Shown piece by piece: positions 28,570-63,942 of a stretch of 64,000 nt of DNA. The position numbers and the translations under genes are program-made. Source of the stretch: an uncultured cyanobacterium (GTDB lineage: Bacteria > Cyanobacteriota > Cyanobacteriia > Phormidesmidales > Phormidesmidaceae). The stretch spans positions 1,120,001 to 1,184,000 of the forward strand of contig CAWBZI010000001.1 in assembly GCA_963793265.1 (NCBI GenBank), read 5' to 3'. The notes under the pieces were generated by a model that searched no databases, was not told where the DNA came from, and saw nothing but the letters and a program-made list of their open reading frames with translations. Position 1 is the first letter of the stretch; the number at the start of each line of letters is the position of its first letter.

Positions 28570-28800
28570 GCGTCTTCTTGCCTTATTTTGTACGTACACT
28601 TTATTTAAATTTGAACGAACACATCTGATTGATACTGTTAATATAGCCTTATAAACAAAGGAGAGTACATTTTATCCGCTTTGGCACTGAGTTTATGTTT
28701 AGAAAAAATACGTAATTCCAGCGTTAGAGCAAAACCCTAATTAAAGACGCTAGATTTACCCTGTTGCTGAGGCCATCATGCAGAACTCAGAGGTAGCTTA

Positions 28801-29037
28801 ATGAACGACAACAATATACTCTCTCGAATTTCTGTCAATCCTGAGATTTGTTTTGGCAAGCCTTGCATTAGAGGACATCGTATATGGGTGACCCTAATTT
28901 TGGACTGTTTATCAGCAGGTGAAACAATTGAAAGTATCTTAGAAGCTTACCCAAGTATTCAGAGAGAAGATGTACTCGCCTGCATTGCTTACGGTGCAGA
29001 AACTATTAGAAAAATGCTACACAGAGACGGCGAATAG
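28801..29037 (+). CDS. DUF433-family protein
   Basis: RISVNPEICFGKPCIRGHRI and EAYPSIQREDV motifs. Confidence 0.9.
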   Translation: MNDNNILSRISVNPEICFGKPCIRGHRIWVTLILDCLSAGETIESILEAYPSIQREDVLACIAYGAETIRKMLHRDGE

Positions 29038-29052
29038 GAGAATTCAAGTCTT

Positions 29053-31722: not shown

Positions 31723-31766
31723 ATATATTCAGCTTTGTTAAATAGAACACAGAGGAAACGCAAACC

Positions 31767-32783: not shown

Positions 32784-32792
32784 GGAGACTTT

Positions 32793-35907: not shown

Positions 35908-35955
35908 TCTTGTTAAGAAGTCTGCTGACTATCCAAAACGCACTGAAGAATTGCT

Positions 35956-36828
35956 ATGCCCTACAGTCTTGTCCTCAATCTTGTACCGCTCTCTCCAATT
36001 CCCAAAACGCATCTAAGCGGGCGACATTTACACGCGCTGTTTTTGGATTTGGTCAGGTCGCATAACCCGGAGCTAGCAACCATCCTCCACGGCCAAACCA
36101 CCCAGAAAGCCTTTACCCTCAGCCCGCTACAAACCAATATCACCACGCAACAGTCACCCGAAACGCTGCAATGGAGCTATCGAAACGCCATCCCTGCGGG
36201 CTCCTTGTGCTGGTGGCGCATTACATTGCTAGATGACACGCTGTTTGCGCAGCTTGCTCACCTGTGGCTGGGCTTGGATAAACAGCAGCAGTGGCAGCTT
36301 GGGGGCAGTCCGATTCAGGTGACGCGCGTGATTGGGACGCAGCAGTTAGGTCAGCCCTGGGCGGGCTATGTGGGTTATCAGCAGCTTTATGAGCAGGCGA
36401 GCGATCGCACTCGAAAACTCCCTTTTAAGCTATGCACCCCCACTAACTTTCGCATCAGCGACTACGACTCTTCTATGCCAACGCGCGATCGCGTATTCAA
36501 AAGCCTGCTAAAGCGCTGGAACCACTACAGCAACATCCCGTTTGAGCCTGACATTATCAGCCATATCTACCCCGGCGAATACAGCATCCATTCAGAAATC
36601 GCCATCGACAGCCGCAGCAAATTTATCGGCTGTGTTGGCAATCTCTCTTTTAATATTCTGGGTGATCTGATGCCGAGCACGGTTAAACAAATTAACGCGC
36701 TGGCAGCGTTTTCTTTGTATGCAGGCGTCGGACGAAAAACGCCAATGGGTATGGGGCAAACGTTTTATGGTGAGATGAAGGCGAATGCTGTGCCTAAGCC
36801 TAAGCCGAGGCGCAAGGTAGCGGTATGA
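35956..36828 (+). CDS. cas6: CRISPR pre-crRNA endoribonuclease Cas6
   Basis: MPYSLVLNL, GRHLHALF, KAFTLSPL and glycine loop GVGRKTPMGMG. Confidence 0.95.
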   Translation: MPYSLVLNLVPLSPIPKTHLSGRHLHALFLDLVRSHNPELATILHGQTTQKAFTLSPLQTNITTQQSPETLQWSYRNAIPAGSLCWWRITLLDDTLFAQLAHLWLGLDKQQQWQLGGSPIQVTRVIGTQQLGQPWAGYVGYQQLYEQASDRTRKLPFKLCTPTNFRISDYDSSMPTRDRVFKSLLKRWNHYSNIPFEPDIISHIYPGEYSIHSEIAIDSRSKFIGCVGNLSFNILGDLMPSTVKQINALAAFSLYAGVGRKTPMGMGQTFYGEMKANAVPKPKPRRKVAV

Positions 36829-37403
36829 GTATTCAGTATTTGCCGCTCTCCTATCTCAATGCTTGGGAGTATTGCCATCGCCGCTTTTACTTGGAGTATG
36901 AGCTGGGAGAGATGAAGATAAATGAGCATATTGTGATGGGGACTCATCTGCATCGGAACGTGGATGAGGAAACGGTGCGGCGAGAAGGAGAGACGACGAT
37001 TTATCAGCAGCAGTGGGTGTGGAGCGATCGCCTAAAAATATCCGGTATCATCGACGCCGTAGAAGAAACTCACGGACACCTTGTACCGCTCGAATACAAA
37101 AAAGGGCGCATGGGCAAACACCTGAGCGATCACTTTCAGCTTTGCGGGGCGGCGCTGTGTTTGGAGGAGCGCATGGGGAGAGAGATTGAGTATGGAGAGA
37201 TTTTTTATCATGCCAATCGGCGGCGGGAGCGGGTGATGTTTACTGAGGAATTGCGGGGTAAAACGGAGGCTGCTGTGATGGCAGCGATCACAGCCACCCA
37301 GTCCACCATTCCCGCACCCATCACCCACAAAACCAAATGTAGCGCCTGTAGCCTCACAGAAATTTGCCTACCCAAAGAAGTTCTCGCTTTACAACAATTA
37401 TGA
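36825..37403 (+). CDS. cas4: CRISPR-associated exonuclease Cas4
   Basis: YCHRR, GIIDAVE, EYKKG, QLC and C..CSL...C Fe-S cysteines. Confidence 0.95.
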   Translation: MSIQYLPLSYLNAWEYCHRRFYLEYELGEMKINEHIVMGTHLHRNVDEETVRREGETTIYQQQWVWSDRLKISGIIDAVEETHGHLVPLEYKKGRMGKHLSDHFQLCGAALCLEERMGREIEYGEIFYHANRRRERVMFTEELRGKTEAAVMAAITATQSTIPAPITHKTKCSACSLTEICLPKEVLALQQL

Positions 37404-38377
37404 CCTCTCTTTACATCACTCAGCCCGACGCCCGGCTCAGCAAAAAATACGAAGCCTTTAAAGTCTCGCTTAAGCAAGAAGATGGCACCTGGAAAAATCA
37501 ATCTGTGCCTGCGCAAACTGTTGAAGAAGTGGTGCTGATGGGCAATCCTTCGGTGACTGGCGATGCGCTGATGTATGCGCTGGAGCTAGGGATGCCGGTG
37601 CACTATCTCTCTCCTTTTGGTAAATACTTAGGGGCGGCGCTGCCAGGACATTCTCGCAACGGACAGCTCAGGCTGGCGCAGTATGGCGCTTACAAGGATG
37701 CTGATGCCAAGCTGACGATTGTGAAGGCGATGGTAACCGCTAAAATTCATAACCAGTATGCGGTGCTGTACCGGCACGGGCAAAAGGAGAATCCCTTAAA
37801 GCTGCGGAAGGCGTTGGTAGCGCAGCAGCATAGCGTGGATCAGGTGCGGGGGATTGAGGGGCTGGCGGCGAGAGAGTATTTTGCGGGGCTTTCGGGGATG
37901 CTGGCGGAGGAGTGGAAGTTTGGGGGGCGCAATCGACGGCCGCCGACTGATCCGGTGAACGCGCTGTTGAGCTTTGGCTATGCGCTGTTGCGAAGCCAGG
38001 TGACTTCGGCGGCGCATATTGCCGGGCTCGATCCTTATGTGGGCTATTTGCATGAGGTGCATCACGGGCAACCGGCGATGGTGCTGGATTTGATGGAGGA
38101 GTTTCGGCCTTTGGTGGCGGATAATGTGGTGCTCGCGACGATCAACAATCGGTCGATTCAGCCGCAGGATTTTACAGAGAGTTTGGGGGCGTACCGGCTG
38201 AGTGACGGGGGGCGGCGGACGTTTTTGCAGGCGTTTGATCGCAAGCTGAACGATACGTTTAAGCATCCAACGTTTGGGTACAAGTGTAGCTACCGAAGAG
38301 CGATCGCACTTCAGGCCCGGCTCTTAGCTAAGCATCTGCAAGAGGGCGTTGTTTACAAGGGTTTGGCGCTGCGATGA
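37400..38377 (+). CDS. cas1: CRISPR integrase Cas1
   Basis: RGIEGLAA, RNRRPPTDPVNALLSFGY and LDLMEEFRP motifs; ATGA overlap with cas4. Confidence 0.96.
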   Translation: MTSLYITQPDARLSKKYEAFKVSLKQEDGTWKNQSVPAQTVEEVVLMGNPSVTGDALMYALELGMPVHYLSPFGKYLGAALPGHSRNGQLRLAQYGAYKDADAKLTIVKAMVTAKIHNQYAVLYRHGQKENPLKLRKALVAQQHSVDQVRGIEGLAAREYFAGLSGMLAEEWKFGGRNRRPPTDPVNALLSFGYALLRSQVTSAAHIAGLDPYVGYLHEVHHGQPAMVLDLMEEFRPLVADNVVLATINNRSIQPQDFTESLGAYRLSDGGRRTFLQAFDRKLNDTFKHPTFGYKCSYRRAIALQARLLAKHLQEGVVYKGLALR

Positions 38378-38667
38378 CGACGCTCTTTTATCTCATTATT
38401 TACGATTTGCCAGATAGTAAGGCGGCAAATAAGCGGCGCAACCGGCTGCATAAGCTGCTGTCGGGCTATGGCCAATGGACGCAGTACAGTGTGTTTGAGT
38501 GCTTTTTGAATGGGGTGCAGTTTGCGAAGTTGCAAGTGCAGATAGAGCGGCTGATTAAGGTGAATGAGGATTCGGTGCGGGTGTATGTGTTGGATGCGGG
38601 GGCGGTGAAGAAGTCGCTGACGTATGGGTCTGAGCAGCCGAGGCAAGCGTCAGCGATTATTTTGTAG
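38374..38667 (+). CDS. cas2: CRISPR-associated Cas2
   Basis: YLIIYDL, QYSVFEC and DSVRVY motifs; ATGA overlap with cas1. Confidence 0.96.
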   Translation: MTTLFYLIIYDLPDSKAANKRRNRLHKLLSGYGQWTQYSVFECFLNGVQFAKLQVQIERLIKVNEDSVRVYVLDAGAVKKSLTYGSEQPRQASAIIL

Positions 38668-38731
38668 GAGGGGCACGGGCTATAGATGCTACCTTAAGGG
38701 CGTGAGCATTTGTTCAGCGGAGCCCTAACGT

Positions 38732-39448
38732 ATGGTTTCTCAACTTTCTAAACTTGCTGAGTCTGAAGTAGCTGACGTTTTCTATCCAGATTCTGATGGT
38801 CAGCCGATGGCAAGCAACACGGAGCAATACCGCTGGATTGTGATGATTCAGCAGAACTTAGACTGGCTTTTGTCGGATGCTTTTGTCGCGGGCGATTTGT
38901 TTTGGTATCCCATTGAAGGCCGTTCGGATGTGTCTGTTGCGCCGGATGTGATGGTGGCTGTTGGAAGGCCGAAAGGAAAAAGGCTTTCTTATAAGCAGTG
39001 GGAAGAAGAGGGTGTTGCGCCACAGGTTATTTTTGAGATCATTTCGCCTAGCAACACTAAACGAGAGATGGATAAAAAGCTGCTTTTCTTTGAGCGTTAT
39101 GGGGTTGAAGAGTATTATCTTTACGACACTGAACGTAACAGTTTGGACGGCTTTTTACGGGGTGAGTTTGGCTTAGAGCATATTGCAGATATGGCTGGCT
39201 GGGTAAGTCCTTTGCTTGATATTCGTTTTGATATGTCGGGCGATGAGCTGACGCTATTTCGTCCGGATGGAACGCCTTTTTTGAGCTATCAAGAGGTTAT
39301 TGAGCAAGCTGAAGTGGCTAAGCAGGAGACTGAAGCGGCTAAGCAGAAGGCTGAAGTGGCTAAGCAAGAAGCTGAAGTGGCTAAGCAGGAGACTATGAAG
39401 CTGGCTGAGAAGCTCAGAGCGCTTGGCGTTGACCCCAATGCTGTATGA
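38732..39448 (+). CDS. Uma2-family (PD-(D/E)xK-like) protein with coiled-coil tail
   Basis: YPDSDGQPMA, APDVMV, FEIISPSN, YGVEEYY and LRALGVDP motifs. Confidence 0.9.
   Translation: MVSQLSKLAESEVADVFYPDSDGQPMASNTEQYRWIVMIQQNLDWLLSDAFVAGDLFWYPIEGRSDVSVAPDVMVAVGRPKGKRLSYKQWEEEGVAPQVIFEIISPSNTKREMDKKLLFFERYGVEEYYLYDTERNSLDGFLRGEFGLEHIADMAGWVSPLLDIRFDMSGDELTLFRPDGTPFLSYQEVIEQAEVAKQETEAAKQKAEVAKQEAEVAKQETMKLAEKLRALGVDPNAV
39308..39391 (+). repeat. 21-bp tandem repeat x4 encoding AEVAKQE heptads
   Basis: gctgaagtggctaagcaggag and three near copies. Confidence 0.85.
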
Positions 39449-39639
39449 TTTTGGCAAAGCCAAGCGGGGGCGATTTCCCTGGGAGGTTTGCCAAAACGCT
39501 AGAACCTTGATAATTCAATAGCTTTGAGAATTTTAGGGAGGGGCGATCGCGATGAATGTCAGCTATTTTTGCTGGTTTTTATGACCTTTGCCAAAACCCT
39601 CTCTGAGATCGATGTATAGTAAGGGTTCCAAAGGCCGGA
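39449..39639 (+). promoter_or_regulatory. CRISPR leader of array 2
   Basis: Same three motifs and identical spacing as leader 1. Confidence 0.85.
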
Positions 39640-42600
39640 CGCGCCAAACCCAAATCCCGATTACCGGGACTGAAACCTAACGGCTGCCGAGTAGAGCACG
39701 TAAACAACTCATTGCGCGCCAAACCCAAATCCCGATTACCGGGACTGAAACGAATGACGAAGTTTGATTTAGACGACTTTTACAGGCGCGCCAAACCCAA
39801 ATCCCGATTACCGGGACTGAAACTGGACATGTTAGGCATGAGCGCGCTTGACATGGAAGCGCGCCAAACCCAAATCCCGATTACCGGGACTGAAACTTTG
39901 GTGCAAAACGGGCAACACGACGCGCCGGTACATCGCGCCAAACCCAAATCCCGATTACCGGGACTGAAACTTGCTGCTTGAGCCATTAGCAAGTAATCCA
40001 AGTGTCCGCGCCAAACCCAAATCCCGATTACCGGGACTGAAACTACAGCAGTGACTTGACCGACCTTAAGAATCCTGCTTCGCGCCAAACCCAAATCCCG
40101 ATTACCGGGACTGAAACATTTGGCATTCATTACTGCTAATGTATCGCGAACTAAACGCGCCAAACCCAAATCCCGATTACCGGGACTGAAACAGATGCTG
40201 CAGGCTGCACTGCGCAATCGCATCGACTTATCGCGCCAAACCCAAATCCCGATTACCGGGACTGAAACTCAAGACCTTTGCTGTACTCAGCACGGGTTGA
40301 AGCTAAGCGCGCCAAACCCAAATCCCGATTACCGGGACTGAAACTAGCGCTAGGCTCGGTCTATGACAGCGAACGGCTACGGCCGCGCCAAACCCAAATC
40401 CCGATTACCGGGACTGAAACATTACGCGCAACTGCCATCAGATGCACCCAATCAGTCGCGCCAAACCCAAATCCCGATTACCGGGACTGAAACATCTAGC
40501 CGAAGACTTGCCAGCCGCAAGTTCTACTAAGCCGCGCCAAACCCAAATCCCGATTACCGGGACTGAAACATCGTGATGCTGCAGAGACGTTCGCGAGCAA
40601 TCTGAGCGCGCCAAACCCAAATCCCGATTACCGGGACTGAAACACAGCGGCAGTGCTGCAGACGATTGACAGCAGTCGGACCGCGCCAAACCCAAATCCC
40701 GATTACCGGGACTGAAACCGTCGATCGCAAGCTTCGACAGCGTTAAGCCGTATCAACGCGCCAAACCCAAATCCCGATTACCGGGACTGAAACGTTGACT
40801 ACTAGTCTGCAAGCAGCATTCGCTCCGCGTCGCGCCAAACCCAAATCCCGATTACCGGGACTGAAACTTAGCTACTGCTGAACTGCGCACAGGCGAACTG
40901 ACTGGCGCGCCAAACCCAAATCCCGATTACCGGGACTGAAACTCAACGACTGCTAGTCCGCTCAAGTGCCGACTGCACGCGCGCCAAACCCAAATCCCGA
41001 TTACCGGGACTGAAACGCTAGTTGGCTCAGGCTGGTTCGAATACTAGTCGACGCGCCAAACCCAAATCCCGATTACCGGGACTGAAACGATCAGCTGATG
41101 TACGCCGATAGTCGTTGAATCAGCGCGCGCCAAACCCAAATCCCGATTACCGGGACTGAAACGATAGTCGTGACTGTAGCCAGCGATTCAAGCGCGTCGC
41201 GCGCCAAACCCAAATCCCGATTACCGGGACTGAAACTTGCAGCTTGCCAGACTTGAAGGTCAGCTAAATTTTTCGCGCCAAACCCAAATCCCGATTACCG
41301 GGACTGAAACGATCTGCGATCGCACTAGCGCCTCGCCGCGTATCTGTCCGCGCCAAACCCAAATCCCGATTACCGGGACTGAAACAAGCAATCTTCTAGA
41401 CTTCACATCGGAGTTCAATGCTCTCGCGCCAAACCCAAATCCCGATTACCGGGACTGAAACGATGATTGCGAATGTCTGTTAGCTTGATTTGCGACAGCG
41501 CGCCAAACCCAAATCCCGATTACCGGGACTGAAACAACAATCTGCTAGACTTCCAATGCGGGTTCAATGCTGCCGCGCCAAACCCAAATCCCGATTACCG
41601 GGACTGAAACATTAGATGCGCTGTCCGAACTCGCGGAGAGAATCGCAGCGCGCCAAACCCAAATCCCGATTACCGGGACTGAAACGCAGCGGCGTTGCAG
41701 ACTCGACTACGCAAGCGTACAGCGCGCCAAACCCAAATCCCGATTACCGGGACTGAAACGCGTAGGGATAGACGTGGTGCCGACTGCTAATCACCGCGCG
41801 CCAAACCCAAATCCCGATTACCGGGACTGAAACATTCCAGACACTATCAGAGCCGTAGCAAGCGCTGATACGCGCCAAACCCAAATCCCGATTACCGGGA
41901 CTGAAACTCTAGAATAGCGTTATGGATTAGCGCACGTATGCTAACCCGCGCCAAACCCAAATCCCGATTACCGGGACTGAAACCATTGGACACTATCAGA
42001 CTGCGACTGTCAGGTGTCTGTCCGCGCCAAACCCAAATCCCGATTACCGGGACTGAAACACAGTGCTATCAACGTCCGGACTAACGCTGGACAGCAGGCG
42101 CGCCAAACCCAAATCCCGATTACCGGGACTGAAACTTAGCATCGTCAGTGAGCAGTTCCGGCCAAGCCTGTTGCCGCGCCAAACCCAAATCCCGATTACC
42201 GGGACTGAAACATCTGAATCTATTAGACTGTATGTGCTAGGACTGTTAGCGCGCCAAACCCAAATCCCGATTACCGGGACTGAAACTAGACAGACTCGGA
42301 CTGGCTCAGCATCAGCAGCTATCGCGCCAAACCCAAATCCCGATTACCGGGACTGAAACAATCCGAATCACTTTATGCCCTGGGCGCATCTCTTGCCGCG
42401 CCAAACCCAAATCCCGATTACCGGGACTGAAACGGATCTCAGCAGATGGCATTACCGCTGGCCTAGCTACGCGCCAAACCCAAATCCCGATTACCGGGAC
42501 TGAAACACAAACGCAGACAAGCAGCTTAAAATCGCCTGCAAGCGCGCCAAACCCAAATCCCGATTACCGGGACTGAAACATTTGATTCGCTATAGTATCA

Positions 42601-43773
42601 GTCGGCAGGCTTTGATCCGCGCCAAACCCAAATCCCGATTACCGGGACTGAAACATTCGGACAATGCAGCTGATCATAACGAGCTCTAGATTCCGCGCCA
42701 AACCCAAATCCCGATTACCGGGACTGAAACGTGGGTGAGCGTTAGTCATCGCGAGAACGTTTCGATGCCGCGCCAAACCCAAATCCCGATTACCGGGACT
42801 GAAACTGTTCGGCGCTCCAATAACGACTGCCACGCTGACCGCACCCGCGCCAAACCCAAATCCCGATTACCGGGACTGAAACTCCTCTACGACCTCTTCT
42901 AGGGAGATGAGTCGGCTTCGCGCCAAACCCAAATCCCGATTACCGGGACTGAAACATCGACAGCAGCGGCACGATCGGACACATTTTCGATCGCGCCAAA
43001 CCCAAATCCCGATTACCGGGACTGAAACGTCTCAGCAGCATCGGCATTAGCCTCTAGTCTAGCTAGCGCGCCAAACCCAAATCCCGATTACCGGGACTGA
43101 AACGAGCTCTCCAAGATAGACGAGGCACACGACTCGACCCCCGCGCCAAACCCAAATCCCGATTACCGGGACTGAAACATCGCCTCTGCCACCGATAGAG
43201 TATTGCGAACATCCGCGCCAAACCCAAATCCCGATTACCGGGACTGAAACTCATGCGTTTACCTACAGCCGGTACGTATTAGACCTGTCGCGCCAAACCC
43301 AAATCCCGATTACCGGGACTGAAACACGTGCTGAGCTGACCGAGACAGGACGTAGCACTAGAGCGCGCCAAACCCAAATCCCGATTACCGGGACTGAAAC
43401 ACCTCATCCCAATCAGCAATGCAACTGACAGCCAAGGCCGCGCCAAACCCAAATCCCGATTACCGGGACTGAAACCTGCTGAAGGTGTTAGAGCTGAATG
43501 CGCGGGGCGGGCCTTCTGACGCGCCAAACCCAAATCCCGATTACCGGGACTGAAACGAATTAGACCGCTATGAAACAGTCATCCTGTCTAATCGCGCCAA
43601 ACCCAAATCCCGATTACCGGGACTGAAACCACATCGAAGGGCAGCGGCCCCGGTTCGTGAGCCCACGCGCCAAACCCAAATCCCGATTACCGGGACTGAA
43701 AATTTCAACTGCGCTATTGTATGGGGGTAGCAAACACACGCCAAACCCAAATCCTGATTACCGGGAGTAAGTC
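39640..43773 (+). CRISPR. CRISPR array 2 (type I-D), about 56 repeats and 55 spacers
   Basis: 37-nt repeat CGCGCCAAACCCAAATCCCGATTACCGGGACTGAAAC. The penultimate repeat ends GAAAA and the terminal repeat 43737-43773 is degenerate. Counted by hand. Confidence 0.98.
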
Positions 43774-51017: not shown

Positions 51018-51437
51018 CTATGCTGACCAGTCCTCAATACTCAAATCTGTTATACGCTCAAAATCTTGGCGGTTGCGTGTAACGAGTGTTGCTTTTTGAG
51101 CCAAAGAAATTGCTGCAATCTTGAGATCTTGTGTACCCGTCCGAAGCTTTCGGGCTAAAAGGACTTGAAAATAAGCCTCTGCTTGAGTGTCGTATTCTAT
51201 AATCCTAAAGCCATCGAGAAACTCTAACGTTCTTGCGAACCAACGATAGACATAAATTCTCTCTTGAGGCTTACTAGCCTTGCGAATCTGCGCTAAACGA
51301 CCTCGAATGAGTTCTTCAGCACTAATCACAGTGATAGCGATCTGAGTAGGTGGAATTGTCAGCAGCTTTTGGCCGATAGGTTCATGGCCACGCTGATACA
51401 GGCTGAGATGATCGCTATCTAATATGTAAAAAGGCAT
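51018..51437 (-). CDS. vapC: PIN-domain (VapC) toxin
   Basis: YILDSDHLS, ISAEE, GTQDLKIAAI and LVTRNRQDF motifs. Confidence 0.88.
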   Translation of the reverse strand: MPFYILDSDHLSLYQRGHEPIGQKLLTIPPTQIAITVISAEELIRGRLAQIRKASKPQERIYVYRWFARTLEFLDGFRIIEYDTQAEAYFQVLLARKLRTGTQDLKIAAISLAQKATLVTRNRQDFERITDLSIEDWSA

Positions 51438-51449
51438 TAAAATACAGCA

Positions 51450-51761
51450 TCACTCCGCAAGAGGATCTGCTTCGCGATCAATTTCTTGACGATATGCTGC
51501 AATTTCAGCTTGCAAATCCTCAAATGTTGGGTCGTCCTTGAACCAACCAAACTTATCAATCCATGGATTTCCCGTCTGTGTTGGCAGCGGAATCTCTACC
51601 TGAATAACTTCCACCTTGTTCGTTAAATAATCAAGGAGGCGAGATTTTAGTTGGGCAATAGCAGCGTCTCGACTGCTTTCAGTCACGATTACTTCGGGCC
51701 ACTCTTTAGCGCGAGCAATATATCTATCGTCTTCTCTACTAAGAATAACATCGTAAATCAT
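51450..51761 (-). CDS. Antitoxin with HicB-like N-terminal fold
   Basis: YDVIL..EDDRYIAR..EWP.....SRDAAI N-domain and NPW..FGWFKDDPTF C-terminus; upstream of a PIN toxin. Confidence 0.7.
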   Translation of the reverse strand: MIYDVILSREDDRYIARAKEWPEVIVTESSRDAAIAQLKSRLLDYLTNKVEVIQVEIPLPTQTGNPWIDKFGWFKDDPTFEDLQAEIAAYRQEIDREADPLAE

Positions 51762-52062: not shown

Positions 52063-52251
52063 GCGCTTCGCGCAGGAAAGAAGAGTAGAGGGAAAGAGGG
52101 TAAAAGAGAAAAGTGTAACTTAAGTCTTGGGCGCAATAAAACAGACTACTCGAAAACCGAAGCTGCTGTTGCGGAAGTCGCGCGAATTCCTGTCGCGATC
52201 GGCCGCGCGGCAGTCCGTCGGGAGGCTGAACCACGAACCGCCCCGCAGCAC
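52063..52251 (-). other. Candidate DGR variable region plus downstream pyrimidine tract and GCGC-GAA-GCGC hairpin
   Basis: VLRGGSW-FSL-P-TD-CRAA-D-R-D-RN-S-RD-F-RN-SS-F-GFRVVC with NNC/NNT codons at the variable sites; hairpin at 52063-52073. Confidence 0.7.
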
Positions 52252-52968
52252 TTTATTCGCGTCAGCAGATTCCCAAACACTTCCATCAGCAGGTGCGCCT
52301 TTATAAGACTCATGCCACCCGTCGAGGCACCATTCCCATACATTGCCGTGCATGTCATGTAAGCCAAAGCCATTAGACGGAAAGCTGCCTACGTCTATCG
52401 TTGTCTCGCGAAATTCGCCCTTTGGCCCTTTGCTGTAGTTGCATGAATAAGTTTCGTTTTGATATTCCCAGTCTGTCCCTCGGTAGTTTTCTAAATTGGT
52501 TGTGATAGTCGGCCCAAAGTGAAAAGGCGTTGTTGTCCTCGCGCGGCAGGCATATTCCCACTGCGCTTCGCTGGGTAAAGTATACGACGCTCGTTTTGAG
52601 CGGTGCGATAGCCGTTTACAAAACTCTACCGCCTCCTCCCAGTTAACTCCTTCAACCGGACGTTGTGCACCTTTAAAGTATGCCGGATCTTTCTCCAAGT
52701 CGCGCTCTATCTTATTCATCGCTGCCACCGCCGCCCACTGCGCTTGAGTCACCGCAAGCTTGCCCATCCAAAACTCAGGCATCCTCACCTCATGCTGCGG
52801 ATACTCATCCTGACTAGCGCCTTCTTCTCCTGATGCTGCCCCCATTAAAAACTTTCCACCCGGAATCCGCACCATTTCTAAGCCGATATCATTGCCGAGC
52901 GCTTCAGTAAAATGCTCCGCCGTACCTGGAATCTTCTCAACCTCTTCGCCTTGCTCATTCACTCGCAC
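52120..52968 (-). CDS. FGE-sulfatase (C-type lectin fold) domain, probably the 3' part of the caspase gene
   Basis: EMVRIPGGKFLMG, LPSEAQWEYACRA, GLHDMHGNVWEWC, RGGSW and GFRVVC motifs. The frame stays open upstream to about 53042 with no ATG. Confidence 0.9.
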   Translation of the reverse strand: MRVNEQGEEVEKIPGTAEHFTEALGNDIGLEMVRIPGGKFLMGAASGEEGASQDEYPQHEVRMPEFWMGKLAVTQAQWAAVAAMNKIERDLEKDPAYFKGAQRPVEGVNWEEAVEFCKRLSHRSKRASYTLPSEAQWEYACRARTTTPFHFGPTITTNLENYRGTDWEYQNETYSCNYSKGPKGEFRETTIDVGSFPSNGFGLHDMHGNVWEWCLDGWHESYKGAPADGSVWESADANKVLRGGSWFSLPTDCRAADRDRNSRDFRNSSFGFRVVCFIAPKT

Positions 52969-53029
52969 GCTCTCAAAGCTGAAGGTAGGGTATTGAACAA
53001 CTTTCTCTAAAGTCTTGTATGCCTCCGGC

Positions 53030-54160
53030 TCAGTCGTCCCGATTCAGGAACATTACTCTCATCCGTTCTCCCAAAACCTTCTTTTCTTCAGCTTGCACAT
53101 CTTTATCGGTAAGGCCAAACGTTCGCTGCAAGCTTTTGAACGACTCAATTACATCATCGTCAAAAGGATAGGCCACCGCTTTTTCTTCTTTCAAAGCTTC
53201 AGCATAAAACGCTAGATGTTTCAGTTTTTCTCTATGCGGCCTCAACACCTCATCGATAATCTCTTTTACTAGCTCAGGCGTAATGCCAAGCTGCGGTTGC
53301 CAGTGTTGCACCAACTCCATGCGAGCCGCCGCATTAATTCGCCCATTGCGAGTCATTTTCTGCACTCGCTTGCGATAGCGCTGCACATTATCCACCTGAG
53401 CTTTTGCCACCCAAATATTTTCGCCTGCCTGCCCGTTAAAGATGGTAGGCTCCATCGTCGGTGCCGCCCCAATCACTCGCTTTTCCACATAGTCGTGCCA
53501 GTGCCGCACCGACACAAACTCACGCCCATCTAGCGCCGCGCCTCCGGTTTGCAATCCTTCTACCAGATAGCGAGTATATACAGACAGCTCCTCACCGATC
53601 TGCTCTAGGGCATAGCGCCGAGAAGTAGCCGCCGTCATCACGCACCAGCCCTTACCGCCTAGCTGCGCTTCCACGTCCATGCTGCCGTCATCCATTGTCA
53701 AAAAGCCATCGGCAAAGGCTGCGCCGAAACAACAGTCTAAAACAACAACTTTACGCTCAGCACCGCAGATTCTCAGTACGCCCTTGATAAAATCTGCTTC
53801 AACGGCTGTACCCGTGCTAAGCTGGCCGGTTTTGTGCAGCTTTGATTGCGCGGTTGTGAGATAAAACTTGTCTGTAAGATCCTTAATGCCATGGCCTGTG
53901 AAGTACAGGAGGGCCAGGTCATCTTTGCGAAGTGACTCAAATGTGTCGCTGATGCGCGATCGCATCTCCCCCACATCCGGGTTAATCAGCGACACCACCT
54001 CAAACCCACCAATAGCAGCATCACCCAACACCGCCGCCATCGCCGCCACCCCCTTAGCAGGACATTGCAACGAAGGCAGTCCCTCGCCATAGCTTCCTAC
54101 ACCAATAAGCAGCGCAACTTTCCTACCCGCTTTCTCTGACATACCTACTTCAGCCAACAT
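53030..54160 (-). CDS. Caspase-like peptidase C14 with helical linker
   Basis: KVALLIGV, YFTGHG (catalytic His), VLDCCF (catalytic Cys) and SVYTRYLVEGL motifs. Confidence 0.9.
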   Translation of the reverse strand: MLAEVGMSEKAGRKVALLIGVGSYGEGLPSLQCPAKGVAAMAAVLGDAAIGGFEVVSLINPDVGEMRSRISDTFESLRKDDLALLYFTGHGIKDLTDKFYLTTAQSKLHKTGQLSTGTAVEADFIKGVLRICGAERKVVVLDCCFGAAFADGFLTMDDGSMDVEAQLGGKGWCVMTAATSRRYALEQIGEELSVYTRYLVEGLQTGGAALDGREFVSVRHWHDYVEKRVIGAAPTMEPTIFNGQAGENIWVAKAQVDNVQRYRKRVQKMTRNGRINAAARMELVQHWQPQLGITPELVKEIIDEVLRPHREKLKHLAFYAEALKEEKAVAYPFDDDVIESFKSLQRTFGLTDKDVQAEEKKVLGERMRVMFLNRDD

Positions 54161-54177
54161 CCCCCAGCCATCAAAAT

Positions 54178-54564
54178 CTAGTCCTTAAGCGCCTGATTCA
54201 GGCTTCGTACCTTTTCCTCTACCGCATCAATATCCTGTATCCGTACGCCCTTTATCTCAATTTTGCGCCCATCCCGCTCTATCAAAATATCTATCGGCTT
54301 CCCCGGCAGTCGCTCAAACACTTCCTGCAATGCCACCTTAATGCCCTCACCCGGAATCTCAGCCGTAATCACACCCCACAGCCAGGCTCCTACCCCCATA
54401 CCACCCTCTGGCACATCAGCATCCGACACCCGCTCTACTGTTTCTACCGCATCTACCCGCCGCAGCTCCTTCAGCAGCGTTTGCGTTAGTGCTTCCTGCT
54501 GAGCCTCAGGCATATCGCGATCAGCCTCGCGCCAGTCAACGGTGAGCTGTACAGAATTAGACAT
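54178..54564 (-). CDS. EACC1-like effector-associated protein
   Basis: 128 aa; acidic N-terminus, LT..L..EL, PEGGMG followed by a hydrophobic WLWGVI segment, and a C-terminal beta region GRKIEI; ends 17 nt upstream of the caspase. Confidence 0.65.
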   Translation of the reverse strand: MSNSVQLTVDWREADRDMPEAQQEALTQTLLKELRRVDAVETVERVSDADVPEGGMGVGAWLWGVITAEIPGEGIKVALQEVFERLPGKPIDILIERDGRKIEIKGVRIQDIDAVEEKVRSLNQALKD

Positions 54565-54675
54565 ATGAAATCTTACAAATAAATAGATATGATACGTTAT
54601 TTCATAGTTGTGTGCGAATTAGCGCGATCTACGTCTGTAGCTATAGGTTCCGGTAACAAATCGCACTTAACCACG

Positions 54676-55101
54676 ATGATGCTCGCTAATTCATTAAAAC
54701 CACTTACCCGCTACCGCATTTTCTGTTCTGTTGTAATAGCAATCCTTGTCGCCCTCGGGCTCGGTAGCAAAGTCTATAGCGGCTGGGCGCAGGGCTGGGT
54801 CAACCACTCTAGCGGTGATGTGCTCTACGAAATGCTTTGGATTTGGCTGGTGGGCAGTTGGAGGGTGCGATGGTCGGTTAAAAGAATTGTGATCGCGACC
54901 TTCCTCATCACCGCTATCATTGAATTCACCCAGCTCATCCCCTTCCCCGCCGTCTGGCAGGCTCAGCTCTGGTGGCGCTTACTACTCGGCTCCACCTTTA
55001 CGCTAGGCGACTTTTTTCACTACGCCATAGGCTGCATACTAGGCGCATTTACTCTAATCTGGACACAGCGCCGATTAATCCCGTCTTACAAAACTCGATA
55101 G
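54676..55101 (+). CDS. DUF2809-like membrane protein
   Basis: GDVLYE, IEFTQL and RLLLGSTF..GD...Y.IG motifs. Confidence 0.75.
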   Translation: MMLANSLKPLTRYRIFCSVVIAILVALGLGSKVYSGWAQGWVNHSSGDVLYEMLWIWLVGSWRVRWSVKRIVIATFLITAIIEFTQLIPFPAVWQAQLWWRLLLGSTFTLGDFFHYAIGCILGAFTLIWTQRRLIPSYKTR

Positions 55102-55112
55102 GAGATAAACAT

Positions 55113-55694
55113 ATGGCGATCGCAACCTCGACAACAACTCTCACAACCGCCCTCAAAGAATGGTCAGTCGCCGTCGATGCCCTAGCAAACGGCGAAACTA
55201 TCCTACTCCTGCGCAAAGGCGGCATCAAAGAAAGTCAGGGTAAATTCTCAGCCCAGGCCGAGCGCGCTATTCTCTTTCCCACCTTTGAGCACCAAAAACC
55301 CGAACTGCTCAAGCCTCAATACCAAGCCGCCGCCACACCCGTTACCAAAGGCTGGCACCCCGACCATATCACCCTCAAGGCTTGGGCTCACATCACTCAT
55401 ATCTTTCTCACAGACGAAGCCGACAAAGTTGCTGCCCTTACCCCCTTTCATGTTTGGCAGAACAACCTAGCTCAGGAGCGTTTGAAGTGGAAGCCCAAAC
55501 AGCCGCTATATGTACTCGCGCTACGCGCCTACCGCTTTGCCAAGGCAATTGAGCTGCCTTGGGATGATAGTTATGGTGGCTGTAAGTCTTGGGTAGAGAT
55601 TAATGAAGAGATTGAGGTAGATGAGGCAAAAGCGGCGATCGCACAGGCAGATTATCTAAAGAAGGTAGAGGCGATCGCCCAAATCCTCCGCTAA
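55113..55694 (+). CDS. DUF1802-family protein
   Basis: ALKEWSV, LLRKGGIKE, FPTFEHQ and YGGCKSW motifs; GGAG SD upstream of ATG 55113. Confidence 0.85.
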   Translation: MAIATSTTTLTTALKEWSVAVDALANGETILLLRKGGIKESQGKFSAQAERAILFPTFEHQKPELLKPQYQAAATPVTKGWHPDHITLKAWAHITHIFLTDEADKVAALTPFHVWQNNLAQERLKWKPKQPLYVLALRAYRFAKAIELPWDDSYGGCKSWVEINEEIEVDEAKAAIAQADYLKKVEAIAQILR

Positions 55695-59034: not shown

Positions 59035-59462
59035 ACAATCAGGTTGTGATAGACGCAGGGCCTTTGGTTGCTTCTATAGATCGTCGAGATGATTTTCATC
59101 AATGGGCTAAGGCAGCTTTAGGCACTGTTCGATATCCTATCTTTACCTGTGAGCCTGTCATCACAGAGTCCTGCTTTCTTTTACGAAAAACTGACGGTGC
59201 AGTACTCAATCTCCTTTCTTTAATCAGCGAAGGACTCATCCGTATTAATTTCTCCGTAGATGAGAATGCTAATGCGTTAAGTGCTTTAATGGCTCGCTAC
59301 AAGTCCGTTCCAATGTCTTTGGCTGATGCCTGTCTCGTCAGAATGGCGGAGCTGAATTCGAGCAGTGTGGTCATGACAATCGATAGCGATTTCACAATTT
59401 ACCGGATGCATCGCAATCAGCCTATTTCGATAATTATGCCGGAAGATCGACAAAGCTATTGA
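59031..59462 (+). CDS. vapC: PIN-domain (VapC) toxin
   Basis: VIDAGPLVA, PVITE, MSLADACLV and TIDSDF motifs. Confidence 0.88.
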   Translation: MNNQVVIDAGPLVASIDRRDDFHQWAKAALGTVRYPIFTCEPVITESCFLLRKTDGAVLNLLSLISEGLIRINFSVDENANALSALMARYKSVPMSLADACLVRMAELNSSSVVMTIDSDFTIYRMHRNQPISIIMPEDRQSY

Positions 59463-62332
59463 TGCTCCAAGACCCACTGATGGAAAAGAGGTACGATGAT
59501 TTTCCATTTACCATCAGCTTCGCTGACAACATCGTGACGCTTCAGCGTCTTAAGCGCTTTATCAATCTCATTTTCTTCGAGTCTGCTCTTTCTGCGAATA
59601 TCTGAGAGGTTTCTACCCTCAATTTTCTCTGCCAGCACTTGCAAAATTTCCTGCTGACCTGGAGCATCTTGAGCAGCTTGTTTCCAAACGCCTGTGAAAT
59701 AGTAGCGGCCTTTGGCGAAAAAGTCACTATGGTAGATAACGGTGTTGAGGTCGTCGAGGGTGAAGATGGGTGAGCGATCGCGGCCCTCATCAAATACCTG
59801 ATGGTTGTAATGACGCACGAGCTGAGAGCCGATGAGCTGAGTAAGGTAGGGCTGGCCTGCCGTGAGCCGATAGATCTCGTTGAGTGTCTCGGGTTTGTAG
59901 TCAAGCGTGAAATCTTCATCAGGGTTGGCGAGCAGTTCGCGAGTTTCGCCTATGCTAAAAAAGCGGATGGGAATGGTTATAACACTGGCGAATAGTGGAT
60001 TGAAGTAGTCTTCAGTCATTTCTTCAAGGGTATGCAGACCTGCAAAGGCAAAGGCAACGTTGAAATATTCCTGTAGCAGACCCCGCAAGAAGCCCAAGAA
60101 GTCGGGACTGAGAGCGTTAGTTGAGATAAGTTCTTCTATTTTCTCGAATTCGTCTAAGGCAATGATTAGACCTTGACCCGGATTGAACTGCTGGCTGATA
60201 GAGCGAATAAAGCGTTGAAAGGTAACAGACGGTAGTCGTAGAAAGTCTTCGTCGGATGGTGGTGAAATTGAGACAGTCTGGCTGATAGCGTCGCTAAGCG
60301 CAATTAAAACTTCGCTTTCTCCTTGGTCTGTAGAGACAGCACCTAAGTTAAGCAAATTTATATAGGCAACTTTAATACTGCTGCCTAAATAGCTCGACAA
60401 ATTTTTAAGAATAGAAGTTTTACCCATACGGCGATGGCCGTAGAGCACAACAGACTGAAGCTGATTGCTCATCAGCCAAAGTTCTTCGAGCTGTTTGATA
60501 ACCTGTCCACGACCTACGAATAGATTTCCTTCTACGGGGTCGCCTGCTACGTATGGATTATGAATAGGCTGTGTATGAGTAATCTCTCCTATGTCGGTTG
60601 CAATAGCTAGTAGTTTTTCTTGCCAAGATTCGGTAATAGAAGCGACTAGCTTTCTTTCAGCTTGAGGAACGCGATCTATTTTTTGAGCGATTTCTGTCAG
60701 CTTGCCGAGGGCTCGATTGAGTGCCAGGGAGCGGTTAGAACGCGAATAGCTTTGATAGACAAGCTGGGCATCATCAACAGTGCTACGGAGGCGAGATATA
60801 GTTGACCATGTATCAGAACGCAGTAGTCGAGAGCTAGGAATAGTCAATATCTCAATTAGTTTGCTGTCATTTAGTTGATCTGCATGTAGAGCAGCCGATA
60901 GGCAATTTGCAAGATGATACATCTCTTCTCCATGAGGCAGATGACGCACTTTTGAGAATGCTTCAGATGACTTAGCAGGCTTATTTTGATACAGATATAA
61001 GAATCCCGCTGCTGTTGCTCGGGCTGGTGTATTGATACGAATAGATGTATCGATATAGGATTGCAATCGTCGCTTTACAGAAGATGGTAGATAGACCAAG
61101 CTCTGAATTGAGCGAGCCTTCAATTCATTAGATAACGACACGGAAACATATCTGATGATATCCCAATCAAAAGGATCGTCTGCTAGCTGCGAAATTCTAA
61201 GCAATAGAACATCACCTGATAGCGTCCTGAGACTACGGTTAATTGCTTTAACGATAGGAATAAACTGTTGAGTGTAAGTTAGTAACTCATTAATATTGTG
61301 GAGAGCAGTCACCCAGTCATGATGCAGCCACTTGAATATCTGAGAAGACAGACCTATTAAAGGGATAGGTGTTACATGTCCGAATTGCTTTGAACGGTGC
61401 GAAGGTATAATCCTTAATAAAGACACTAATATCCATTGATCCGGCCTTAGAATTAATACATTCAAAGCTGCTGCTGGCAAAACATATAATCCTGAAAAGA
61501 ACAAAACAACTAATACAATACCTACAACTACTGTAAATACTGATCCGAGAGGCGGCACCAACATTACAGTAAGTCCAAAGTACGTTCCCGTGATAATTAG
61601 TAAAAGTATTAAAGATAGAATAGATGCGATACTATACGTTAAGTTGATCAAGAAGTATGATGCAATGCTTGTGATTGCACTTGATGAAGCTATAAAAGCA
61701 ATAAGTGCTGGAACAAGGAAGGAGAGTAAAAGAAGCCGTGGCCTTTCTGCTACGAAAGTTGCAAACCCGGATGAGAAAATTTCTGTTAAGCTACTCGATA
61801 TAAATACTTGTGAAACAGCAGCGACAATTAAAAACATAACAATTATTCGTAAGTCATCGCCAGATAATGGCCTAGAGTCCTCAGACCTTTCCAAAGGCGA
61901 GGATTTCCTATTAGGCCTAAGTCTGATCGGGTTTGCGCTAATAAGACCGACTGAAACACCAACCGCAACCGCAAGCGTACATCCGAGTGTGCCAATCACC
62001 GAAGAGTCGATTCTATGAAAGAAGATAAGTCCTATAAGCAAACTAGCTATTGTCAGATATCTCTTGTGCAATCCAAAGTAGCTTTGAAAAGCCCATTGCC
62101 AGTAAGACCAACGTATGTACCAATCTTCACGTTGACTGAGATCTATCTTGTTGAGTTCACTTAAGCGATTAGGCGAGCTGAGGCGACTAAACGATATGAC
62201 GCTCCACCTCAACGCTTGAGGGAAAAAAGCTACCCAGTATAGAAGGTGTACATAATCAAACGGATTCCATAGAGACAAGGGATTGCGACGCTTGGGCGCT
62301 AAATTTAGTCGAGGAACGATGTGCGTGCTCAT
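59456..62332 (-). CDS. Multi-pass membrane protein with C-terminal STAND-like ATPase and winged helix
   Basis: Hydrophobic N-terminal third; NPYVAG..FVGR, GHRRMGKTS, ALDEFE and TAGQPYL motifs. Confidence 0.85.
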   Translation of the reverse strand: MSTHIVPRLNLAPKRRNPLSLWNPFDYVHLLYWVAFFPQALRWSVISFSRLSSPNRLSELNKIDLSQREDWYIRWSYWQWAFQSYFGLHKRYLTIASLLIGLIFFHRIDSSVIGTLGCTLAVAVGVSVGLISANPIRLRPNRKSSPLERSEDSRPLSGDDLRIIVMFLIVAAVSQVFISSSLTEIFSSGFATFVAERPRLLLLSFLVPALIAFIASSSAITSIASYFLINLTYSIASILSLILLLIITGTYFGLTVMLVPPLGSVFTVVVGIVLVVLFFSGLYVLPAAALNVLILRPDQWILVSLLRIIPSHRSKQFGHVTPIPLIGLSSQIFKWLHHDWVTALHNINELLTYTQQFIPIVKAINRSLRTLSGDVLLLRISQLADDPFDWDIIRYVSVSLSNELKARSIQSLVYLPSSVKRRLQSYIDTSIRINTPARATAAGFLYLYQNKPAKSSEAFSKVRHLPHGEEMYHLANCLSAALHADQLNDSKLIEILTIPSSRLLRSDTWSTISRLRSTVDDAQLVYQSYSRSNRSLALNRALGKLTEIAQKIDRVPQAERKLVASITESWQEKLLAIATDIGEITHTQPIHNPYVAGDPVEGNLFVGRGQVIKQLEELWLMSNQLQSVVLYGHRRMGKTSILKNLSSYLGSSIKVAYINLLNLGAVSTDQGESEVLIALSDAISQTVSISPPSDEDFLRLPSVTFQRFIRSISQQFNPGQGLIIALDEFEKIEELISTNALSPDFLGFLRGLLQEYFNVAFAFAGLHTLEEMTEDYFNPLFASVITIPIRFFSIGETRELLANPDEDFTLDYKPETLNEIYRLTAGQPYLTQLIGSQLVRHYNHQVFDEGRDRSPIFTLDDLNTVIYHSDFFAKGRYYFTGVWKQAAQDAPGQQEILQVLAEKIEGRNLSDIRRKSRLEENEIDKALKTLKRHDVVSEADGKWKIIVPLFHQWVLEHQ

Positions 62333-63942
62333 AGCTGCTGCTCTTGCAAACTTGCATAATGCTGATAACAGAGAGTGACTACTTCTCTAGGATTTCCTCG
62401 ACTAACTTGAATAATTCTCGTAATTTCCGATTCAGCAAACTGAACAGACGAAGCTTGCAACCTGTCAGCAATAAAGCTTCGAGTGATACCGTCATCCCAA
62501 GGTTTTATGATTTCTTCCAAGCAGATACCTGATAAAGGAGACACCATATTGCCATCGGCACTGTCAGGAAATAGCCTATCCAATGATTTTGAAGCAGCTA
62601 CGACTAATCGAAGAGGAGCGTCCTTACCTTCTGCTAACCCCCGCAACTGCCCTCTCACCTGATTCGTAAAGCCATCCCAGGTCATTTTCTCTATCTCGTC
62701 TAGAATCAGCAGTAGCCGTTTCGATTTCAGCTCGCGTGCCAAACGAAACCCTTTGCATTCAGGAATACCAGCTTTATCGCATAGGGCATAGTAAAAGTCT
62801 TCCTCGTCTGCAACGTGCCGCAAATCAAGATAGATAGGCTCGCGGTATATTTCTAAAAACTCTTTTGCGTTCGCTTCAACAGCTTTGAGCAGAGAAGACT
62901 TTCCCATCTCTCTACTGCCTATCAGAGCTACACTACTGCCACTATTGAGCGTTTCAAAAATCCACTTCAGCGTCTGCTCACGCCCAAAAAACTGATCCGG
63001 CGAATCAATCCGCCCACCCAAAGGCCCAAACGGGTTAGCATCGCTGACAACAAACGAAACAGCATCCGTCTGCTCTACGCTTCCTTTCTGCGTACCCGAT
63101 AGCAGCGCCTTCAAATCTCGAATCAGCCCTAAAATGATATCAGGCCGATCGTCTGCTGCCGAAATACCCGACTCTATCAACGCCAGCTTATCCATCACCT
63201 GGCCAAACTTTTGCGGCACTTCCTCAGAAACTTCTTTAGCCACCTTTTGCAGATTACTATCGACCGCTTGCAGCGTGACTTGCTGTGCCACTAGCCTGCT
63301 ATCAATTTGAACCAGCATTTGAGTTTCAAAAAAGGCATGTAGCTCAGGATTATCGCTGAGCTGCTTAGCAAAAAAGCCATAGGCGCGGTCAATTAGACCA
63401 TCTTCGGGCTGTGCTAACTTCGCGGCGTAGAGTGGAATGGCGTCTTCTGCTGTAGCGAAATTTGTCAGCGATCGCACCACCTCCAAAGCCGCATCCCGCT
63501 CCCCAAAACCAACAAACCCTTCCAAATCTTGCACAGAAATCTCAGGCAGACACGCCTCCGCCCCTTCCAACGCCTTAATCTCCTGTTTCAGCCAAGCCAG
63601 CTTACTGTCCAGCCAGCGAATATCCGCCTTAACTTCTTTAGAATAAACAGGCTGTCCTCTCCAATGCTTCGGAAAATCTCCAATCAGCTCAACCTTGCAC
63701 TCGGAGCAGATACTGACCAATGCCCGCAAATACGAGAGCCAAAGTGCCTTCCGCAGATCTTCGCTAATAGGCGTCGAAGCTTGCCCCTTGAGCGCATTGA
63801 TCAAACACTCACAAACCCGTACAAACCCAACATCAACCCTATTTCCGACGATTCCGCCTACAGAGGCAGCGACCAGCGCCGTAGGCTGCACTGCATTCAC
63901 CGACGCCCCAACCATTAATGCTAGTAGCCCCGCTAAAGCCAA
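62329..63942 (-). CDS. STAND-like ATPase with hydrophobic N-terminus and coiled coil
   Basis: NPFG..GRI...FFGRE, GSREMGKSS, LILDEIE and SRGNPREV motifs; TTG start with GAGGTG SD; ATGA overlap with the next ATPase. Confidence 0.85.
   Translation of the reverse strand: MALAGLLALMVGASVNAVQPTALVAASVGGIVGNRVDVGFVRVCECLINALKGQASTPISEDLRKALWLSYLRALVSICSECKVELIGDFPKHWRGQPVYSKEVKADIRWLDSKLAWLKQEIKALEGAEACLPEISVQDLEGFVGFGERDAALEVVRSLTNFATAEDAIPLYAAKLAQPEDGLIDRAYGFFAKQLSDNPELHAFFETQMLVQIDSRLVAQQVTLQAVDSNLQKVAKEVSEEVPQKFGQVMDKLALIESGISAADDRPDIILGLIRDLKALLSGTQKGSVEQTDAVSFVVSDANPFGPLGGRIDSPDQFFGREQTLKWIFETLNSGSSVALIGSREMGKSSLLKAVEANAKEFLEIYREPIYLDLRHVADEEDFYYALCDKAGIPECKGFRLARELKSKRLLLILDEIEKMTWDGFTNQVRGQLRGLAEGKDAPLRLVVAASKSLDRLFPDSADGNMVSPLSGICLEEIIKPWDDGITRSFIADRLQASSVQFAESEITRIIQVSRGNPREVVTLCYQHYASLQEQQL

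Follow-up and report, generated by a model that had tools for sequence, protein, structure and literature searches.

A two-gene EACC1-like–caspase locus with a once-diversified lectin domain in a cyanobacterium: probable remnant of an abortive-infection module

Organization of the locus

The 64,000-nucleotide (nt) stretch analysed here – referred to throughout as the window – comes from contig CAWBZI010000001.1 of GCA_963793265.1, the assembly of an uncultured cyanobacterium of the Phormidesmidaceae, and carries on its minus strand a compact locus in which a gene for a small EACC1-like protein is followed by an orthocaspase gene and then by a reading frame for a formylglycine-generating enzyme (FGE)-sulfatase domain with the C-type lectin (CLec) fold (Table 1). 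The last of these ends in a variable region (VR) of the diversity-generating retroelement (DGR) type. An earlier note, made from the letters alone, had named these elements, and reading frames and Pfam matches recover every one of them in its place on that strand; by speaking of a 'repaired fusion' the note already implied that the caspase and the FGE domain are not one open reading frame (ORF), and their frames do differ here. The stop of the EACC1-like gene (54178) and the ATG of the caspase (54160) are 17 nt apart, and the arrangement is that of a small stand-alone gene immediately 5′ of an N-terminal caspase with a variable C-terminus. A consensus scan finds three promoter-like sites in the region against a mean of 3.1 in shuffled sequences, and the promoter and terminator counts are no higher than in the shuffles.

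Table 1. Features of the EACC1-like–caspase locus, in window coordinates.
Feature	Position	Strand	Length	Remarks
EACC1-like gene	54178..54564	minus	128 aa	predicted protease-activated pore-forming effector
Orthocaspase (peptidase C14) with helical linker	53030..54160	minus	376 aa	PF00656; TGA end made by the frame break
Frame-change zone	53030..53043	minus	14 nt	includes GGG run 53038-53040
FGE-sulfatase / C-type-lectin-fold putative sensor domain	52120..53043	minus	307 aa, stop to stop	PF03781
DGR-type variable region (LRGGSW...GFRVVC...)	52123..52248	minus		without template repeat now
Weak promoter-like hexamer pair	54589..54618	minus		adjoins EACC1-like gene upstream; 9 of 12 consensus matches

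The EACC1-like protein

The protein encoded by the first gene, 128 amino acids (aa) long, has a single Pfam match, to PF19953 (EACC1; E 1.7e-4), and this extends over profile positions 6–106 of 107. A word-index search identified 26 relatives at E<=0.001 among 41 candidates, and all of those with names are Leptolyngbya- or Phormidesmis-type cyanobacteria; PF19953 is matched at E<=0.01 by 10 of the 23 close homologues. Five residues (R45, P52, M56, G57 and E69) are invariant in the 23 aligned sequences, and position 48 is either Asp or Glu in every one of them. The Gly-rich hydrophobic segment GGMGVGAWLWGVITAEIPG (residues 54–72) is likewise conserved across the homologues, with W61, L62, W63, A68 and I70 nearly invariant, and constitutes a conserved hydrophobic patch of small and Gly residues. 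The description of this gene product in the earlier note – an EACC1-like small protein with a Gly-rich hydrophobic segment – therefore stands, PF19953 being its only match and the segment being conserved.

A profile search of 1.84 billion representatives clustered at 50% identity extends the family to 203 proteins at E<=0.001. From these a set of 148 sequences was assembled, consisting of the window protein and the 147 best-ranked representatives absent from the first alignment, and no rival Pfam family competes with EACC1 among them; a few contain fused TRADD-N, TIR, COR, CHAT or caspase domains, partners associated with conflict systems. An ESM Atlas search ranks third a cluster that bears the name EACC1 (score 0.92, with 203 of 256 features shared), and 23 of 30 hits fall within the set so named.

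The AlphaFold2 (AF2) model of the protein (predicted local distance difference test, pLDDT, 77.7) comprises an N-terminal beta-alpha-beta unit (strand 4–10, helix 20–36, strand 42–45), a disordered loop at residues 53–60 that adjoins R45 and D48, and a C-terminal alpha/beta unit (strand 65–71, helix 72–85, strands 91–97 and 100–107, helix 109–127). The modelled fold is in keeping with the autoinhibited alpha/beta monomer reported for the EACC1 protein that has been tested (10.1101/2025.11.14.688446). A Foldseek comparison of the model with the PDB gives no match at E<=0.001, only weak resemblances to generic ferredoxin-like alpha/beta folds. Judged from its sequence, the small protein likely belongs to a divergent cyanobacterial branch of EACC1; its own genome (G000; seven contigs, 98.97% complete) has this one EACC1-like gene only.

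The caspase and the lectin-fold domain

The 376-aa ORF matches PF00656 well above the cut-off (E 3.7e-14; 53.4 bits versus 21.4) and retains the catalytic His and Cys of peptidase C14, as the earlier note had read from the sequence. C143 and C144 (in 'LDCCF') are invariant in all 24 rows of the alignment and H90 (in 'FTGHG') is kept in 23 of the 24. In the AlphaFold2 model the N-terminal core is confident and the p10-like part (residues 145–257) is of low confidence, and residues 258–363 are helical (block pLDDT 70–91), in agreement with the helical linker proposed previously. Among solved structures the caspase has only weak matches to the MALT1 paracaspase (E 1.4e-4), and these are uninformative on specificity.

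The FGE frame contains a full-length PF03781 domain (E 2.1e-52), whose sequence matches PvdO, FGEs and the DGR variable protein TvpA (PDB 2y3c; E 5.8e-18). In alignments with 6muj and 2q17 the domain has a Ser in place of the first cysteine of the 'C-x4-C' pair of FGEs and retains the second, and the pair of active-site cysteines – presumably the catalytic residues of these enzymes – is thus incomplete. Because one FGE cysteine aligns with Ser, the domain is probably a binding module rather than an enzyme. Inspection by eye revealed no export signal in the window protein.

The same genome encodes an intact paralogue of 663 aa with the order caspase, linker and FGE domain (contig C6:598596-600587; L003 4596-6587, minus strand). 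The caspase ORF of the window is 57% identical to the caspase half of this protein over 354 residues, and the FGE halves are 47% identical over 288 residues.

Gene order among relatives

The synteny survey that the earlier note had suggested covers the loci of 31 relatives (identified below by L numbers), and it bears out the pairing: 25 of the 31 have a caspase homologue after the EACC1-like gene, and in 18 of those 25 the caspase is followed by an FGE domain. Of the 25 caspase-bearing loci, three are truncated at the end of a contig and one, L009, is a remnant. Where the FGE domain is present, it shares one continuous frame of 650–820 aa with the caspase in 16 of 18 loci, the exceptions being L011 and L026. 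The caspase has other partners too, with a fusion to an Hsp70 substrate-binding region in L006 and to GUN4 in L020 and L032. This repertoire fits the published syntax of a constant EACC1 plus caspase with a variable C-terminus, and also the published DnaK-like fusions (10.1101/2025.11.14.688446).

The second gene is interrupted in three of 21 complete loci of relatives, by an in-frame stop in L011 and by frame changes in L026 and L032. Either a dangerous gene decays repeatedly, or these metagenome-assembled genomes contain indel errors.

A further arrangement is seen in L007, L008 and L009, where the EACC1-like gene lies directly 3′ of a caspase–FGE gene with a conserved C-terminus (termed 'type B' below) and lacks, or has only in reduced form, a downstream caspase of its own. 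A 22-aa caspase remnant and half of an FGE domain persist in L009, and a fragment of an IS240-type transposase lies near the L007 gene.

Descent of the variable region and absence of a DGR

The C-termini of these proteins are of two kinds. Those of type A are hypervariable between 'LRGGSW' and 'GFRVV', and are present in the window and in nine other loci (L005, L010–L014, L023, L025 and L033). Those of type B are conserved (...FYLPTNCRSAYSLTYPFHNRTDD...) and are found in nine EACC1-linked loci, in L007–L009 and in the paralogue on C6, the C-terminus of which is not hypervariable.

Several of the relatives retain a DGR. In L014 and L023 the gene order is EACC1-like gene, caspase–FGE gene, bAvd, reverse transcriptase (RT; RVT_1) and template repeat (TR), and each of the two has a VR/TR pair of 123 nt in which 15 of 16 differences are at TR adenines, the mark of DGR mutagenic retrohoming. 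The same-genus locus L048 has a caspase–FGE gene, bAvd, RT and TR, with 11 of 12 VR/TR differences at adenines; no EACC1-like match is present in the roughly 900 nt upstream of its caspase–FGE gene. The VR of the window is 80% identical to the L023 template repeat over 101 nt (E 3.7e-21), and within a 93-nt core 13 of the 19 mismatches lie on the 25 adenines of that TR (Fisher p 2e-5). On the strength of this similarity and of the concentration of mismatches on TR adenines, the window VR is of the DGR type by descent. It occupies the C-terminus of a CLec/FGE fold, it aligns with the VRs and TRs of relatives and is orthologous to proven VRs, and the earlier note had classed it correctly.

The DGR itself is absent. 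A repeat search finds no template repeat within the window, and BLASTN (word size 7) of the seven contigs with the FGE gene and two relatives' TRs finds only the VR and the paralogue. TBLASTN of the seven contigs with the L014 and L023 proteins finds neither bAvd nor a DGR-type RT, the only RT gene recovered being 25–27% identical. A search with PF00078 shows this to be the sole RT of the genome, a 560-aa protein (contig C3:33431-35113; L001 1345-3027) with RVT_1, intron-maturase and HNH domains, and these last two assign it to a group II intron. The genome thus has neither a cognate TR differing at adenines nor a DGR-type RT with bAvd.

Near-identical strains are represented by Logan contigs from three public metagenome runs (X1, X2 and X3) belonging to two studies. 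Within the VR one difference is listed among these environmental strains (position 52223, in X1), and more than 30 are listed elsewhere in the stretch. With the VR nearly unchanged among near-identical strains and the DGR cassette gone, the receptor is frozen, and the 'somatically diversified' receptor of the earlier note does not describe this genome. When five relatives' genomes, of unknown completeness, were searched with one RT query, a DGR-like RT with a stop in it was found in one of the five; type A variable regions may often be orphans among relatives.

The position directly 3′ of the FGE gene, where relatives have bAvd, RT and TR, is occupied in the window by a VapBC-like pair (51018-51761, minus strand), in which a 139-aa PIN-domain protein (E 7.8e-6) is accompanied by an ORF of 103 aa that lacks a Pfam match.

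The frame break between caspase and lectin-fold domain

Relative to the caspase, the FGE domain is read in the +1 frame. This frame, blocked upstream by a TGA at 53046-53044, is open from 53043 onwards only, and that of the caspase terminates with the TGA at 53032-53030; bounded by these stops, the change of frame is confined to about 14 nt. The first possible start in the FGE frame is a GTG at 52968, within a conserved motif and past the conserved 'F.FE.V.V' stretch that is shared with the intact paralogue, which argues against two naturally separate genes.

Comparison with the metagenome strains locates the change more closely. Each of the four contigs that bridge the junction (one from X1, two from X2 and one from X3) lacks one base of the window sequence, at 53036 or 53038. 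The X1 contig spans the whole 2,445 nt of the locus in one piece with 31 differing letters, and this missing base is the single length difference listed across the 2,445 nt. Dropping either 53036 or 53038 yields one frame of 679 aa, compared with 376 aa for the caspase as the window stands. The extra base, which is in or next to the GGG run, is either a very recent strain mutation or a consensus error. A search of same-genus DNA (31 genomes including G000) recovers diverged copies only, at 65–82% identity, and none is near enough to date the frameshift.

A programmed +1 frameshift was considered and rejected, since 16 of 18 relatives and all of the bridging metagenome contigs encode a single frame, and phase variation at a run of three bases is unlikely. 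If the frameshift is real, the caspase is without its sensor, and the module would be silent, deregulated or heading to loss.

Proposed mechanism and predicted complex

By analogy with the tested member of the family and with the literature on DGR-diversified CLec sensors, a working model for the intact form of the system can be outlined. The caspase protein would bind a ligand derived from an invader by way of its C-terminal, cytoplasmic C-type-lectin (FGE-fold) domain, and ligand binding would switch on the N-terminal orthocaspase. The caspase would then act on the disordered loop of the EACC1-like protein, the likely cut lying near R45, which is invariant, or near the acidic residue 48, the positional counterpart of Asp49 in the tested EACC1. 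The freed C-terminal fragment, with its Gly-rich hydrophobic segment, would oligomerise into a membrane pore and cause cell death. In the past of this lineage the lectin tip would have been diversified by a DGR (bAvd, RT and template repeat), as it still is in relatives; now, with the cassette gone, the receptor is frozen, and one extra base in the linker splits the caspase from its sensor. Ligand sensing, caspase activation, cleavage and the lethal pore are all steps that we infer from these precedents. The wiring from lectin through caspase to EACC1-mediated death put forward in the earlier note agrees with the published work on KrAvs12 and with the synteny; the coupling of the sensor is interrupted in this genome by the one-nucleotide frame break.

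Complex prediction with a caspase-domain dimer and the EACC1-like protein gives a score of 0.51, against 0.00 for the best of three controls. The mark used for such scores is reached by 116 of 157 solved complexes and by two of 215 mismatched pairs, and passing scores at or below 0.60 account for only 18 of the 157 solved complexes and for both of the passing mismatches. At least 80% of contacts agree between runs and the partner has a pLDDT of at least 75. The model thus lends weak support to a predicted binding of the EACC1-like protein by the caspase.

Surroundings of the locus

The window contains two CRISPR arrays (24975-26945 and 39598-43701) with related 37-nt repeats (ending ...GGGACTGAAAC) and a total of more than 80 copies. 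They flank a type I-D-like cas locus (genes 27697-39448) that includes Csc2, Cas6, Cas1 and a DEAD-box helicase gene, together with an 889-aa ORF that has no Pfam hit. Leader-like sequences of 72 nt at 24811-24882 and 39449-39520 are 90% identical. A 21-nt tandem repeat at 39291-39394 (four overlapping 41-nt copies, 73–100% alike) is located in the 3′ part of an ORF resembling Uma2-family endonucleases (38732-39448), before the second CRISPR leader.

Adjacent to the EACC1-like–caspase locus and divergent from it are two genes at 54589-55694 on the plus strand, one for a 170-aa membrane protein of the DUF2809 family and the other for a 240-aa DUF1802 protein (E 3.8e-62). Farther along, at 59456-63942 on the minus strand, an ORF of 537 aa that lacks a Pfam match precedes the gene of a 958-aa protein, residues 605–829 of which form a STAND-like ATPase region (ATPase_2 / AAA_16); these two may be another defence gene pair. 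With the CRISPR-Cas locus, the VapBC-like pair and the STAND-like ATPase, the window can be regarded loosely as a defence neighbourhood.

Interpretation and alternatives

We consider it likely that the locus is a two-gene EACC1–caspase abortive-infection module with a formerly DGR-diversified sensor, and that it is now most likely a decaying or deregulated remnant, the latter holding unless the extra base is an assembly error. Several observations weigh against this interpretation. The profile hidden Markov model check proposed in the earlier note confirmed peptidase C14 and left EACC1 short, at 21.9 bits against a gathering cut-off of 23.6, and among the 148 representatives PF19953 is matched at E<=0.001 by 18. 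Cyanobacterial orthocaspases are reported in general to be Arg/Lys-specific, as against the Asp cut in the tested EACC1. No caspase follows the EACC1-like gene in six of the 31 relatives' loci; one of these (L029) ends about 160 nt past the EACC1-like gene, L007 has the transposase nearby, and the remaining four (L027, L028, L035 and L008) have unrelated neighbours. The paralogue on C6 has no EACC1-like gene upstream, where an intergenic region of about 500 nt is found. Finally, it is possible for a DGR to be carried on a replicon missing from the 98.97% complete genome, and the frame break, with the short GGG run involved, may be an assembly error.

The last of these points leads to an alternative that we regard as a real prospect though somewhat short of probable, namely that the module is intact and the extra base a consensus error, such that the 679-aa caspase–lectin fusion is a germline-fixed receptor still able to trigger the EACC1-like pore. 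The base is missing from each of the four bridging contigs of the three runs, including X3 pieces that are at least 99% alike elsewhere, the one listed length difference in the 2,445 nt falls in or next to a GGG run, and there is no other damage in either half, the dyad being intact and the FGE domain full length. Set against this are the long neighbouring genes of the window, which are unbroken, and the completeness of the genome, both of which speak against an assembly full of indels; three identical bases in a row are moreover a weak hotspot for errors, and the broken second genes in three of the 21 complete relatives' loci (L011, L026 and L032) indicate that decay of such genes occurs. A different outcome of DGR loss, that it hard-wired a useful receptor, fixed in the germline and with a variable region identical in several environmental strains, against a prevalent phage and that the split caspase–linker and a lectin supplied in trans (from GTG 52968) together control the EACC1-like pore, seems to us rather improbable.

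Two further explanations question the nature of the components themselves. The orthocaspase–lectin could be a signalling or regulatory protease with no part in immunity, one adjusting a pathway of the cell as has been suggested for cyanobacterial DGR targets, and the small protein its non-lethal substrate, inhibitor or chaperone. Regulatory roles have been argued for orthocaspase-bearing variable proteins (PMC7517822), the genome has 12 C14 caspases, the same caspase is fused in relatives to GUN4 or to the Hsp70 substrate-binding domain, and the paralogue lacks an EACC1-like partner. We nonetheless think this unlikely, as the EACC1 that was tested forms lethal pores once its caspase has activated it (10.1101/2025.11.14.688446), EACC1 is the sole family signal of the small protein, and type I-D CRISPR-Cas occurs in the window together with a VapBC-like pair and a STAND-like ATPase. 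Alternatively, the small protein may be an unrelated, lineage-specific partner of the caspase, with the PF19953 signal arising from the composition of its Gly-rich patch. The score below the gathering cut-off points in this direction, as do the 130 of 148 representatives without a PF19953 match at E<=0.001, the fact that 10 of 14 control genomes also give PF19953 matches below threshold at E<=1, and the lack of a solved relative in the Foldseek search. However, the match covers nearly the whole profile and so extends beyond the patch, there is no competing family and most of the Atlas hits lie in the EACC1-named set, and the size of the protein, its 5′ position beside a caspase and its partner repertoire equal those of published EACC1 proteins, so that we give this explanation little credence.

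Relationship to known systems

The EACC1–caspase pair is a named two-gene conflict system, 'System 4' of Kaur et al. 2020 (PMC7159879). Evans et al. 2025 (10.1101/2025.11.14.688446) report that the KrAvs12 caspase cleaves EACC1, that the C-terminal fragment permeabilises liposomes, and that the tested EACC1 is an autoinhibited monomer cut near Asp49 to give a lethal pore former; DGRs and DnaK-like domains are listed there among the partners of EACC1-associated proteases. Orthocaspase–CLec targets of DGRs and their non-diversified paralogues in cyanobacteria were described by Vallota-Eastman et al. 2020 (PMC7517822), and a 2024 paper (PMC10907252) put forward the concept that hypermutated antigen sensors are linked to effectors of cell death. 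The EACC1–caspase pair, the DGR link and the orthocaspase–CLec targets are thus all in print, and the designation of the module as a little-characterised system in the earlier note is one we do not retain; this architecture or organism may itself already be included in the figures or supplements of these papers. The locus raises no new question, the mechanism and the DGR link having been published. What it adds is a cyanobacterial branch of the EACC1–caspase family that is mostly missed by the Pfam model, and that pairs with both DGR-diversified and conserved lectin sensors. It also offers a natural example of retroelement loss, with a frozen receptor and possibly a broken sensor–protease fusion, useful for comparing active with fossil diversifying immune receptors.

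The likeness to System 4 is close: a small 5′ gene with a Gly-rich hydrophobic segment precedes a 3′ gene whose product begins with a caspase and varies at its C-terminus, and partners of both the DGR and the DnaK-like kind occur among the relatives of the window gene. The example that has been tested carries an Avs12 STAND sensor, whereas the protein in the window has a lectin-fold domain, and the window further differs in belonging to a cyanobacterial branch below the Pfam cut-off, in its split second gene and in the absence of a DGR. The cyanobacterial orthocaspase–CLec proteins (PMC7517822) share with it the N-terminal orthocaspase, the C-terminal CLec/FGE domain with a DGR VR at its tip, and the presence of a non-diversified paralogue in the same genome, which here is the C6 protein with its type B C-terminus; the caspase passages of that paper make no mention of an EACC1 partner, and the genome of the window is without a DGR-type RT or TR. 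The systems of PMC10907252 resemble it in coupling a hypervariable CLec sensor to peptidase effectors and programmed death, but they are mostly ternary systems with STAND or MoxR–vWA components and trypsin-like or CHAT peptidases rather than EACC1 pairs.

At the level of the lectin-fold domain, a counterpart with a known structure and a DGR variable region is Treponema denticola TvpA, a CLec protein of the FGE type, and the match extends through the variable region at the C-terminus ('LRGGSW...GFR..C'). TvpA is a lipoprotein of the cell surface, and the window protein differs from it in carrying a caspase. The formylglycine-generating enzymes themselves (such as 6muj and 2q17) have the same fold and belong to the same Pfam family, and the window domain differs from them by the Ser at the first Cys position.

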